This document shows, one piece after another, positions 29,585 through 44,028 of a stretch of DNA of 47,548 nucleotides. How positions within the stretch are numbered: position 1 is the first letter of the stretch; each line of letters opens with the position of its first letter. A model generated the notes under the pieces. The model saw nothing but the letters and a program-made list of their open reading frames with translations, was not told where the DNA came from and made no database searches. The position numbers and the translations under genes were made by a program. This DNA is from a phage. The DNA is taken from the NCBI GenBank assembly GCA_012145005.1, contig GCA_012145005.1_3029.1. The stretch is one strand, 5' to 3'.

Positions 29585-30787
29585 ATGAAAGTATGTATTT
29601 TTATGGCTCGAGGTCTTGAAGGTTGTGGTGTAACAAAATTCTCACTCGAGCAACGTGATTGGTTTATTAAAAATGGTCATGAAGTGACTTTGGTTTATGC
29701 TAAAGATAAATCATTTACTCGTAATTGCGCGCATGATTATAAATCATTTTCAATTCCGGTTTTATTGGCAAAAGAATACGATAAAACACTTAAGCTGGTA
29801 AATGATTGTGATATTCTAATTATCAATTCAGTTCCTGCTACTTCGGTTGAAGAAGACACTATTAATAACTATAAAAAAATTATTGATAACATTAAACCTT
29901 CTGTTCGTGTTGTAGTTTATCAGCATGACCATTCTTCTCTTTCTTTGCGTCGAAATTTGGGATTAGAAGAAACTGTTCGTCGAGCTGATGTTATTTTTAG
30001 CCATTCTGATAATGGTGATTTTAATAAAGTTCTGATGAAAGAATGGTATCCTGAAACAGTTTCTCTGTTTGATGATATTGAAGAAGCACCGACCGTATAT
30101 AACTTTCAGCCTCCTATGGATATTGCGAAAGTTCGATCAACCTATTGGAAAGATGTTTCTGAAATTAATATGAATATCAACCGTTGGATTGGTCGTACGA
30201 CTACATGGAAAGGTTTTTATCAGATGTTTGATTTTCACGAAAAACATCTTAAACCTGCAGGACTAAGTACTATTATGGAAGGTCTGGAACGTTCTCCAGC
30301 GTTCATTCCTATTAAAGAAAAAGGAATTCCATACGAGTATTATCGTCTTCATCAAGTAGACCAAATTAAAATTGCTCCTAATTTGCCAACGCAAATTCTT
30401 GACCGTTATGTAAATAGCGAAATGCTTGAACGCATGAGTAAATCCGGATTTGGTTATCAACTGAGTAAGTTGGACAAAAAATATTTACAACGTTCTTTAG
30501 AATATACTCATCTCGAGCTTGGTGCATGTGGAACAATTCCGGTATTTTGGAAATCTACTGGCGAAAATTTAAAATTCCGTGTTGATAATACTCCTTTGAC
30601 CTCGCATGATAGCGGTATCATTTGGTTTGATGAAAATGATATGGAATCAACATTTGAACGTATTAAAGAACTGTCATCTGACCGAGCTCTTTATGACCGT
30701 GAGCGAGAAAAAGCATATGAATTTTTGTATCAGCATCAAGATTCAAGCTTCTGCTTTAAAGAACAGTTTGACATTATTACAAAATAA
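29585..30787 (+). CDS. agt: DNA alpha-glucosyltransferase
   Basis: 400 aa; MKVCIFMARGLEGCGVTKFSLEQRDWFIKNGHEV matches T4 alpha-gt. Confidence 0.93.
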   Translation: MKVCIFMARGLEGCGVTKFSLEQRDWFIKNGHEVTLVYAKDKSFTRNCAHDYKSFSIPVLLAKEYDKTLKLVNDCDILIINSVPATSVEEDTINNYKKIIDNIKPSVRVVVYQHDHSSLSLRRNLGLEETVRRADVIFSHSDNGDFNKVLMKEWYPETVSLFDDIEEAPTVYNFQPPMDIAKVRSTYWKDVSEINMNINRWIGRTTTWKGFYQMFDFHEKHLKPAGLSTIMEGLERSPAFIPIKEKGIPYEYYRLHQVDQIKIAPNLPTQILDRYVNSEMLERMSKSGFGYQLSKLDKKYLQRSLEYTHLELGACGTIPVFWKSTGENLKFRVDNTPLTSHDSGIIWFDENDMESTFERIKELSSDRALYDREREKAYEFLYQHQDSSFCFKEQFDIITK

Positions 30788-40784: not shown

Positions 40785-41036
40785 ATGGAAACTTTAGTAG
40801 CAGGTTCAATTTTTATGGTTTTAGTTTCATGCGTGTTGGCTATTATTATATACATGCTTCCATGGTTCATCGCCTTGATGCGCGGGTCAAAATCGACAGT
40901 AGGAATCTTTTTCACATCTTTACTGTTTAACTGGTCAATTATTGGTTGGTTTATTACATTTATTTGGTCAATTGCGGGTGAAACTAAAAAATCTGTGCAG
41001 CAAAATCAAGTAATTATCATCAGAGAGAAGGAATGA
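40785..41036 (+). CDS. imm: superinfection immunity membrane protein Imm
   Basis: 83 aa, two TM helices, position between 43 and 42 as T4 imm. Confidence 0.75.
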   Translation: METLVAGSIFMVLVSCVLAIIIYMLPWFIALMRGSKSTVGIFFTSLLFNWSIIGWFITFIWSIAGETKKSVQQNQVIIIREKE

Positions 41037-41182
41037 AAAGCAAAATTTTAACAGTATTGCTTTTAATCTTGATGATTATAATAAGTATATACTATAGCGT
41101 AACGGTTCCTTGTATGATTCCAACGCTTATTATAGGGTGGAGTTTATTACTGTTACAAGTTAAATATGAATGTATCAATTGA
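41033..41182 (+). CDS. small hydrophobic membrane peptide (49 aa)
   Basis: ATGA-coupled to imm; MKSKILTVLLLILMIIISIYY. Confidence 0.35.
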   Translation: MKSKILTVLLLILMIIISIYYSVTVPCMIPTLIIGWSLLLLQVKYECIN

Positions 41183-41189
41183 GGTTTAA

Positions 41190-41930
41190 ATGATTAATGA
41201 CTCTTTGACAGTTGAAGAAACTCGTCTTCATTTGGGAATTGCGTTAAAGGAAAAAGATTTCGTAATTGATAAAACTGGCGTTAAAACTATTGAAATTATT
41301 GGCGCATCATTTGTAGCAGATGAACCGTTTATTTTTGGCGCTCTTAATGATGAATACATTCAGCGTGAACTTGAATGGTATAAATCTAAAAGTTTGTTTG
41401 TTAAAGATATTCCGGGCGAAACACCGAAGATTTGGCAACAGGTAGCATCTTCTAAAGGCGAAATTAACTCGAATTATGGTTGGGCCATCTGGTCAGAAGA
41501 TAACTATGCCCAGTATGATATGTGTTTAGCTGAACTTGGTCAAAATCCTGATTCTCGACGTGGTATCATGATTTATACTCGTCCATCCATGCAGTTTGAC
41601 TACAATAAAGATGGTATGTCAGATTTCATGTGTACGAATACAGTACAGTACCTGATTCGTGATAAGAAAGTCAATGCAGTAGTAAGCATGCGTTCAAATG
41701 ACGTGGTCTTCGGATTCCGTAATGATTATGCATGGCAAAAATACGTACTAGATAAATTAGTATCTGATTTGAATGCAGGTGATTCAACTCGTCAGTATAA
41801 AGCAGGTTCCATTATATGGAATGTCGGGAGCCTTCACGTGTATTCCCGTCATTTTTATTTGGTTGACCATTGGTGGAAAACTGGCGAAACTCATATTGCG
41901 AAAAAAGATTATAACGGTGAGTGGAAATGA
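41190..41930 (+). CDS. 42: dCMP hydroxymethylase gp42
   Basis: 246 aa; matches T4 gp42 (thymidylate-synthase-like fold). Confidence 0.93.
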   Translation: MINDSLTVEETRLHLGIALKEKDFVIDKTGVKTIEIIGASFVADEPFIFGALNDEYIQRELEWYKSKSLFVKDIPGETPKIWQQVASSKGEINSNYGWAIWSEDNYAQYDMCLAELGQNPDSRRGIMIYTRPSMQFDYNKDGMSDFMCTNTVQYLIRDKKVNAVVSMRSNDVVFGFRNDYAWQKYVLDKLVSDLNAGDSTRQYKAGSIIWNVGSLHVYSRHFYLVDHWWKTGETHIAKKDYNGEWK

Positions 41931-42769
41931 TTCAATTCGTAATTCCAAGCTATCAACGCGTAGGGGCAGTTTCTGCCCTTGATATGTTTCCGACTGATTA
42001 TGAACCACATATTGTAGTACGTGAACACGAAGAAAAAGCTTATTATGACGCTTATGGGTCTAGAGCTAAAATTATAACTATTCCTGATGATGTTAATGGA
42101 ATTGCTGGTACTCGTAAAGCAATTACTGATATGTATGCAGGTCAACGAATTTGGATGATTGATGATGATACTACTATTCGTATGAGTTCAATGCGAAAGA
42201 AAGATGATCGTCGCTGCGTAGATAAAATTAATCAATTAACCCGTGAACAGTTCTATGAATTGATTCAATACGTTGAAGATGCCATGGATTGCGGGTATTA
42301 TCATGGTCATGCTCGTCTGCCTATTTTTAAAATTACTTCATCTTGGGGTAATTATCGTGAAAATTCATATGGATTCACGAATACATGGTATGACCTTGGA
42401 AAACTTACGACAGAACAAATTGGGTATGGAAAAATTGATTTATGCGAAGATATGTATGCATTTCTCAATTTAATTAATCAAGGTTATCCACATTTGGCCT
42501 TGTTCAAATATCTGGTTGTATCTGGAAAAGCACAGGCTCCCGGCGGATGTAGTTCAATTCGTAGTAATTCAAAACATAATAGAGCTCTTGAGCAAATCAA
42601 TAGAGAGTTTCCAGAGCAAGCTCGTTGGAAAACATCGAATATTGAAAAGAGAAAATCGTTGGGTGAAGAAGATGAGCCATTAAAGGTTCTTCGCATGTGT
42701 GTTTCGCGCAAAGAAAAATCAGAAGCGTTTCATAAGTTTAATGCTATTCATCCAATAGCAGTTGATTAA
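41927..42769 (+). CDS. GT-A fold glycosyltransferase (candidate HMC-DNA glucosyltransferase, not T4 beta-gt)
   Basis: VIPSYQR N-terminal motif and WMIDDDT DxD motif; occupies the beta-gt slot downstream of gene 42 but N-terminus does not match T4 beta-gt as I recall it. Confidence 0.6.
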   Translation: MIQFVIPSYQRVGAVSALDMFPTDYEPHIVVREHEEKAYYDAYGSRAKIITIPDDVNGIAGTRKAITDMYAGQRIWMIDDDTTIRMSSMRKKDDRRCVDKINQLTREQFYELIQYVEDAMDCGYYHGHARLPIFKITSSWGNYRENSYGFTNTWYDLGKLTTEQIGYGKIDLCEDMYAFLNLINQGYPHLALFKYLVVSGKAQAPGGCSSIRSNSKHNRALEQINREFPEQARWKTSNIEKRKSLGEEDEPLKVLRMCVSRKEKSEAFHKFNAIHPIAVD

Positions 42770-42846
42770 TGCCTAAATTTATTGTGTTATAATTACTTTA
42801 TCTTTAACCAGTGAGGAAAATATAATGATGCCTATGGAAAAAATGA

Positions 42847-44028
42847 ATGTCTATTGCAGATTTAAAATCCCGTTTGATTAAAGCTTCCACTTCTAAAATG
42901 ACTGCTGAACTGACTACATCTAAATTCTTTAATGAAAAGGATGTAATCCGTACAAAAATCCCAATGCTTAATATCGCTATTTCAGGTGCGATTGATGGTG
43001 GTATGCAGTCTGGTTTAACTATTTTTGCAGGTCCTTCTAAACACTTTAAATCAAATATGTCTTTGACCATGGTTGCGGCGTATTTGAACAAATATCCTGA
43101 CGCGGTATGTCTATTCTATGATAGCGAATTTGGTATTACTCCAGCTTATTTGCGATCCATGGGAGTTGACCCGGAACGAGTAATTCATACGCCAATTCAG
43201 TCAGTTGAACAGCTGAAAATTGATATGGTGAATCAGCTTGAAGCTATTGAGCGTGGTGAAAAAGTTATTGTATTCATTGACTCAATTGGTAATATGGCTT
43301 CTAAGAAAGAAACGGAAGATGCCTTGAATGAAAAATCTGTGGCAGATATGACTCGTGCTAAATCACTGAAGTCATTATTCCGTATTGTTACTCCTTATTT
43401 TAGTATTAAAAACATTCCATGTGTTGCGGTTAACCATACAATTGAAACAATTGAAATGTTTAGTAAAACCGTGATGACAGGTGGTACAGGCGTAATGTAT
43501 TCGGCTGATACTGTATTCATTATCGGTAAGCGCCAGATTAAAGATGGTTCTGATCTTCAGGGGTATCAATTTGTTCTAAATGTAGAAAAATCTCGTACCG
43601 TTAAAGAAAAAAGTAAATTCTTTATTGATGTTAAATTTGACGGTGGCATCGATCCTTATTCTGGATTGTTAGATATGGCTTTAGAATTAGGATTTGTGGT
43701 AAAACCTAAAAATGGCTGGTATGCTCGTGAATTTCTTGACGAAGAAACCGGTGAGATGATTCGCGAAGAAAAATCTTGGCGTGCAAAAGATACCAACTGC
43801 ACTACATTCTGGGGTCCTTTATTTAAGCATCAGCCATTCCGAGATGCTATTAAACGTGCTTATCAGTTAGGTGCTATTGATAGTAATGAAATTGTTGAAG
43901 CTGAAGTTGATGAATTGATTAACTCAAAGGTTGAAAAATTTAAATCTCCAGAAAGTAAAAGTAAATCAGCAGCTGATTTAGAAACTGACCTCGAGCAGTT
44001 AAGTGATATGGAAGAATTTAATGAATAA
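42847..44028 (+). CDS. uvsX: RecA-like recombinase UvsX
   Basis: 393 aa; Walker A GPSKHFKS; matches T4 UvsX. Confidence 0.93.
   Translation: MSIADLKSRLIKASTSKMTAELTTSKFFNEKDVIRTKIPMLNIAISGAIDGGMQSGLTIFAGPSKHFKSNMSLTMVAAYLNKYPDAVCLFYDSEFGITPAYLRSMGVDPERVIHTPIQSVEQLKIDMVNQLEAIERGEKVIVFIDSIGNMASKKETEDALNEKSVADMTRAKSLKSLFRIVTPYFSIKNIPCVAVNHTIETIEMFSKTVMTGGTGVMYSADTVFIIGKRQIKDGSDLQGYQFVLNVEKSRTVKEKSKFFIDVKFDGGIDPYSGLLDMALELGFVVKPKNGWYAREFLDEETGEMIREEKSWRAKDTNCTTFWGPLFKHQPFRDAIKRAYQLGAIDSNEIVEAEVDELINSKVEKFKSPESKSKSAADLETDLEQLSDMEEFNE

Follow-up and report, generated by a model that had tools for sequence, protein, structure and literature searches.

[quoted passage not shown] In T2 and T6, alpha-gt does not act on adjacent hmC residues, about 25% of hmC stays bare, and ba-gt adds a beta-1,6-linked glucose to yield gentiobiosyl-hmC (PMC6024577, PMC13216743, bioRxiv 10.64898/2026.02.25.707755). 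For the T2 and T6 enzymes, this transfer is known to be to alpha-glucosyl-hmC (PMC6024577, PMC11078745), and the T6 enzyme has been shown genetically to add the second glucose: T6 with the gene deleted carries only alpha-glucosyl-hmC, at about 75% (PMC11078745; bioRxiv 10.64898/2026.02.25.707755). T6 is the textbook high-gentiobiosyl phage, with gentiobiosyl-hmC at about 72% versus about 5% in T2. The DNA of the Durham phages Solly, TB37 and CP has been measured as about one third hmC and about two thirds gentiobiosyl-hmdC (PMC13390438).

Here we consider positions 41927-42769 of the window, by which we mean the whole 47,548-nt stretch of phage DNA that was analyzed. With a probability of about 0.93, we read this gene as a T2/T6-type ba-gt that, together with gp42 and alpha-gt, makes gentiobiosyl-hmC and no beta-glucosyl-hmC; a T6-like virion pattern is the probable outcome. 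What we show here is the identity of the gene, its synteny, its conserved motifs, its class of fold and the lack of a beta-gt, while the product and the effect of deletion are taken from literature on near-identical proteins. The gene is already known, being the textbook T2/T6 enzyme, and both genetics and nucleoside mass spectrometry have been published for near-identical phages. Only a few points are mildly new: a correlation between allele and sugar ratio that includes T2 R11H, lesions in both public T6 records, and an apparent ba-gt remnant in T4.

Identity and setting of the gene downstream of gene 42

The gene (41927..42769, +) is an intact open reading frame of 280 amino acids whose stop codon ends at 42769. 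The program-made list of reading frames starts it earlier, at the GTG of 41921, but annotators of T2 and the Durham phages placed the start of the orthologous genes at the ATG, and direct reading of the sequence places the ATG at 41927 within an ATGA that is shared with the gene 42 stop codon. T2, Geo, EL, Solly, TB37 and CP have the same 4-nt overlap (41927..41930, +) in their annotations, and it suggests translational coupling of ba-gt to gene 42. As the initial annotation had said, the neighbor upstream is the dCMP hydroxymethylase gene (gene 42, 41190..41930, +), which matches the T4 enzyme structures PDB 1B49/1B5E at E 1.1e-164 and lies in a region with 94.5% nucleotide identity to T4. 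By these sequence matches it is a true hydroxymethylase. Many RefSeq records name gene 42 ‘thymidylate synthase’. Between imm and gene 42 there is also a hydrophobic reading frame of 49 amino acids (41033-41182, +), which is called ‘Phage protein’ in the Durham phages and is unannotated in the T4, T2 and T6 records, although its DNA is about 94% identical to T4. Downstream, 77 nt separate the end of ba-gt from uvsX (42847-44028; Pfam T4_UVSX_C and RecA), and the order of gene 42, ba-gt and uvsX is common to T2, T6, Geo, EL, BGP, Solly, TB37 and CP.

A scan for promoters and terminators around ba-gt turned up no more sites than shuffling would produce (13 against 11.4 and 2 against 1.3, respectively), so we make no claim of a dedicated ba-gt promoter. 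One terminator-like stem-loop with a 9-bp GC-rich stem, TAGGGGCAG-TTT-CTGCCCTTG, lies at 41961-41981 (+) within ba-gt codons 12-19; with two such sites against a shuffled expectation of 1.3, it may be meaningless.

The family assignment is consistent across resources. The protein matches PHROG 842, ‘beta-glucosyl-HMC-alpha-glucosyltransferase’, over residues 1-275 of 280 (E 5.6e-89), and its only Pfam match is the TET-associated glycosyltransferase family (TAGT, PF20691), with a score of 38.8 bits against a gathering cutoff of 27.5 and spanning profile positions 2-205 of 205. NCBIfam holds no matching model for the family. By megablast, the gene is found in 480 phage records at 90-98% nucleotide identity, nearly all of them Tequatroviruses of Escherichia, Shigella, Yersinia and relatives. 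At the protein level, 690 phage records contain it by tblastn, 178 of them with identity of at least 99%, and this spread makes a chance reading frame untenable. The comparison with the T2/T6 enzyme that the initial annotation had called for gives 276 of 280 identical residues with T2, and a T6 record that differs by five substitutions and a stop codon, which bears out its suggestion of a T2/T6-type, gentiobiosyl-forming enzyme.

Naming in the databases is uneven. The symbol ‘b-gt’ is given to ba-gt in RB3 (NC_025419), RB27 (NC_025448) and T2 (LC348380), though the gene is unrelated to T4 b-gt, and the T2 record AP018813 carries many plainly wrong product names, such as ‘N-acetylmuramoyl-L-alanine amidase’ for alpha-gt.

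Conserved motifs, predicted fold and the exchange with beta-gt

The two GT-A signatures first noticed in the protein, VIPSYQR (residues 5-11) and WMIDDDT (residues 76-82), are both present and their core is conserved. A homology search returned 11 relatives with identities from 99% down to 29%, PF20691 being found in nine of the 11, and 10 full-length sequences were aligned. Across the 10-sequence alignment, I6, P7, S8, Y9, R11, D79, D80, D81, D175 (of an E-D pair), G206, G207, S209 and R212 are invariant. The IPSYQR motif (codons 6-11; 41942..41959, +) coincides with a strand at residues 2-6 that is modeled with high pLDDT, and its place at the end of this first beta-strand would fit a nucleotide-binding role of the GT2/GT-A kind. 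The DxD motif (codons 79-81, GATGATGAT, read as DDD; 42161..42169, +) lies at the end of a modeled strand at residues 74-79 and is the presumed ligand of the divalent metal and the UDP diphosphate, while E174/D175 is a candidate catalytic base. These metal, diphosphate and base roles are drawn from general knowledge of GT-A enzymes.

An AlphaFold2 model of the protein, for which this alignment served as input, has a mean pLDDT of 70.7 and a pTM of 0.75; it is confident in an N-terminal alpha/beta core and contains four disordered segments. Because the model is only moderate, it supports a fold class and not an active-site geometry. Foldseek against the PDB gave 45 matches at E<=1e-3, all of them GT-A glycosyltransferases or nucleotidyltransferases of the same fold, the GT-A matches including AvpGT, WrtF, RmlT, TarS, TarP, SpsA, the K4CP chondroitin polymerase, LARGE1 and the ABO transferases. 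The protein is thus predicted to adopt a single Rossmann-like nucleotide-diphospho-sugar transferase fold, and it does not show the two-domain GT-B fold. Motif conservation and predicted fold together support a GT-A enzyme, as does independent AF3 work on the T6 protein (PMC13216743).

The protein had also been taken to be something other than T4 beta-gt while occupying its position, and both halves of that statement hold. BLASTP against T4 beta-gt yields a best E of 3.4 over only eight residues, far from a significant full-length alignment. At E<=10, a search of PDB sequences, with the T4 beta-gt entries included, returns no glucosyltransferase and no solved relative, and PF09198, the T4 beta-gt family, does not match at E<=0.1. 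With T4 proteins as tblastn queries, neither beta-gt nor segA is found within the 47.5-kb window, while the T4 alpha-gt query matches at 91.5% identity. Nucleotide homology to T4 runs at 94.5% up to position 41912, near the end of gene 42, and returns at 86.9% from 42859, 12 nt inside uvsX; the T4 counterpart of the slot between these genes holds beta-gt and segA. Such sharp breaks at both gene borders indicate cassette replacement, not drift. The last 25 nt of the cassette (42747..42771, +), which take in the 3' end of ba-gt with the stop codon and the next 2 nt, match T4 at 24 of 25 positions by blastn (4263-4239 of the T4 locus, L003), and the T4 copy adjoins the start of segA immediately upstream. 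Downstream of ba-gt, the motif TTATCTTTAACC(A/G)GTG at 42797-42815 recurs just past the T4 beta-gt stop (about 4400-4360 of the same T4 locus). The 25-nt remnant and the TTATCTTTAACC motif look like footprints of an exchange between ba-gt and a beta-gt(+segA) cassette.

Other readings of the gene can be weighed against this evidence. That the genomic slot is identical, and that several records (RB3, RB27 and T2 LC348380) carry the label ‘b-gt’, would be expected of a highly diverged T4 beta-gt, the same gene having simply drifted. However, the protein lacks sequence similarity to T4 beta-gt, its fold class is GT-A where that of T4 beta-gt is GT-B (PMC13216743), and T4 homology stops abruptly on both sides; BLASTP, the PDB sequence search, Pfam, fold class and the border breaks together refute drift, and we give it practically no weight. 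The breadth of PF20691 leaves more room for a TAGT enzyme of another specificity, either one that uses a different donor sugar such as arabinose, as in RB69, or one that replaces beta-gt on bare hmC, and some TAGT homologues are paired with beta-gt or stand alone, with activities that are unknown (PMC13216743). This is nonetheless very improbable here. The protein has 98.6-99.3% identity with the enzymes of phages whose DNA has been measured, beta-glucosyl-hmdC was not found in phages with near-identical enzymes (PMC13390438), T6 without the gene has only alpha-glucosyl-hmC (PMC11078745), and gene 42 of the window encodes a true hydroxymethylase. The candidate arabinosyltransferase of RB69, ORF003c, has a predicted GT-B fold, and T2 ba-gt has no BLASTP homologue in RB69 (PMC6024577); since the RB69 candidate is GT-B and unrelated, the arabinosyltransferase comparison proposed at the outset is not relevant to this gene.

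Glucosylation pathway, alleles and expected sugar ratio

In the proposed pathway, gp42 would make hm-dCMP, which would replace dCMP in the phage DNA. After replication, alpha-gt would move glucose from UDP-glucose onto hmC in alpha linkage; as neighboring hmC residues are closed to it, roughly 1/4 to 1/3 would stay bare. The alpha-gt gene, described as intact in the initial annotation, is so: it lies at 29585-30787 (+), encodes 400 amino acids, matches PDB 1XV5 at E 5.6e-258 and has 91.5% amino acid identity to T4. The 280-aa GT-A enzyme would then add a second glucose from UDP-glucose, beta-linked at the 6-OH of the alpha-glucose, to give gentiobiosyl-hmC. A beta product from UDP-alpha-glucose would imply an inverting mechanism, in keeping with a GT2-like GT-A fold. 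As the 47.5-kb window contains no beta-gt, beta-glucosyl-hmC is expected to be absent from the DNA. HPLC/MS data from phages whose enzymes are 99% identical support the gentiobiosyl-hmC product (PMC13390438), and by analogy the allele of the window would transfer glucose to alpha-glucosyl-hmC in beta-1,6 linkage.

The T2 enzyme (AP018813 / LC348380) shares with the window its length of 280 aa, its 843-nt gene, its position and its 4-nt overlap with gene 42, at 94.9% nucleotide identity, and differs by R11H, K92R, I101V and P251S. T6 (MH550421, AP018814), whose protein is the ‘TAGT’ reference in PMC13216743, likewise shares gene and position, at 95.0% nucleotide identity, and differs by Y40N, D55G, K92R, I101V and R106H. 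Solly and TB37 differ only by K92R and I101V, and CP by these and V30A; at about 95-96% nucleotide identity to the window, they are not the same phage. Neither K92 nor the pair K92/I101 occurs in any of the other eight phages compared. The identical protein in ime09, phiC600P9 and ZCEC15 (100% by tblastn) shows that the K92/I101 allele circulates, though we found no DNA analysis of these three phages in the literature. The Durham phages Geo, EL and BGP, with hmC, glucosyl and gentiobiosyl forms at 1:2:2, have a common ba-gt haplotype (I50V, M89I, R95K, C97R, A202S, Q203H), and neither the high-gentiobiosyl phages nor the window carry this set of six further substitutions. The allele table was drawn up without QOTSP, NR1, Some and EH2, Durham records that are not co-linear with T2, so that a fixed coordinate range missed ba-gt in them.

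The T2 and T6 records show peculiarities of their own. His11 of T2 (AP018813 12283-13125 (-); LC348380 1295-2137 (-)) is the same in both T2 records and stands where Arg occurs in all 10 aligned members and in every other phage compared. In the T6 record MH550421 (L001 12138-12980 (-)), codon 10 of ba-gt is TAG, and the gene is annotated from Met21 as a protein of 261 aa; in AP018814 (L004 3135-3974 (-)), the loss of one GAT turns WMIDDDT into WMIDDT and shortens the DxD motif. Given the high gentiobiosyl content for which T6 is known, these lesions must be mutations of the stocks or else errors in sequencing a GATGATGAT repeat.

Judged from its alleles, the virion DNA of the window would probably contain about one third hmC, about two thirds gentiobiosyl-hmC and a trace of alpha-glucosyl-hmC, that is, a ratio like that of Solly and T6 and unlike that of T2. 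We predict a Solly-like ratio because the alpha-gt protein is identical to that of Solly and ba-gt differs from it only at K92R and I101V; the prediction is a correlation across eight phages from three to four lineages. The same enzyme could instead produce a T2-like outcome, in which a weak allele or weak expression leaves DNA mostly as alpha-glucosyl-hmC with a few percent of gentiobiosyl-hmC. The alpha-gt of the window is of the T2 type (two amino acid differences), the region is about as close in nucleotides to T2 as to T6, and we found no published determinant of the difference between 5% and 72%. We nevertheless consider this outcome unlikely, as Solly and TB37 carry T2-type alpha-gt yet have about two thirds gentiobiosyl (PMC13390438), and the window keeps R11, with His at this otherwise invariant position in T2 alone.

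The alpha-gt allele was rejected as a determinant of the ratio, as both types occur with high and with lower gentiobiosyl content: T2 (5%), Solly and TB37 (both high) have the T2 type, and T6 (72%) and Geo (intermediate) the T4/T6 type. T2 R11H is a candidate cause of the low gentiobiosyl content of T2 (about 5%). It is conceivable, but on present comparisons doubtful, that natural ba-gt alleles set the gentiobiosyl:glucosyl ratio across T-even phages, with R11H giving the 5% of T2, the haplotype of Geo, EL and BGP giving 1:2:2, alpha-gt being irrelevant and the window carrying a ‘full-activity’ allele. A limited literature search found no published statement of this idea.

The alpha-gt proteins fall into two allele classes about 33-36 aa apart, one in T2, Solly, TB37 and the window and the other in T4, T6 and Geo. 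That of the window is one residue from TB37, two from T2 and 33 from T6. The classes appear shuffled relative to the ba-gt alleles, a pattern that indicates recombination between loci about 11 kb apart.

For annotators and users of phage therapy, the DNA chemistry to expect is gentiobiosyl-hmC with some bare hmC and no beta-glucosyl-hmC, and the expected sugar pattern decides the outcome against known defenses. The initial annotation had anticipated that the pattern would matter for modification-dependent restriction, and the literature documents this for Brig1 (PMC11078745), for BapA and Brig3 (bioRxiv 10.64898/2026.02.25.707755) and for GmrSD and BrxU (PMC13390438). The second glucose protects DNA against Brig1, a glycosylase of alpha-glucosyl-hmC (PMC11078745), and against BapA, a deglucosylase, and residual bare hmC exposes such phages to the 5hmC glycosylase Brig3 (both bioRxiv 10.64898/2026.02.25.707755). 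GmrSD-family enzymes still cut the DNA of such phages (PMC13216743, PMC13390438).

Comparison with described systems

The inverting GT2-family GT-A enzymes SpsA, TarS, TarP, RmlT, AvpGT and WrtF resemble ba-gt in predicted fold, in the N-terminal nucleotide-binding strand motif and in the DxD motif. Identity to them is only 9-15%, however, with TM-scores of about 0.45-0.5, and their acceptors are lipids, teichoic acids or glycans, whereas that of ba-gt is a sugar on duplex DNA. T4 beta-gt (GT-B, PF09198, PDB 1BGT/1JG7) is alike in its slot downstream of gene 42, in its use of UDP-glucose and in the beta linkage that it makes on phage DNA, but it is unrelated in sequence and fold class and its acceptor is bare hmC, not alpha-glucosyl-hmC. 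In T4, the gene next to beta-gt on its downstream side is segA, for a homing endonuclease; the window lacks it.

The alpha-gt of the window is of the T2 type, unlike that of T6, which is of the T4 type. Alpha-gt and ba-gt occur together in 12 of 14 sequenced T4-like RB phages, with only RB55 and RB59 having alpha-gt and beta-gt (Thomas et al., PMC6024577), and of 753 phage genomes surveyed in NAR in 2026, only 6 combine alpha-gt with beta-gt (PMC13216743). By these counts, the arrangement in the window is a common one, and so it is in Tequatrovirus, where alpha-gt is often paired with TAGT; the alpha and beta pair of T4 is the exception.
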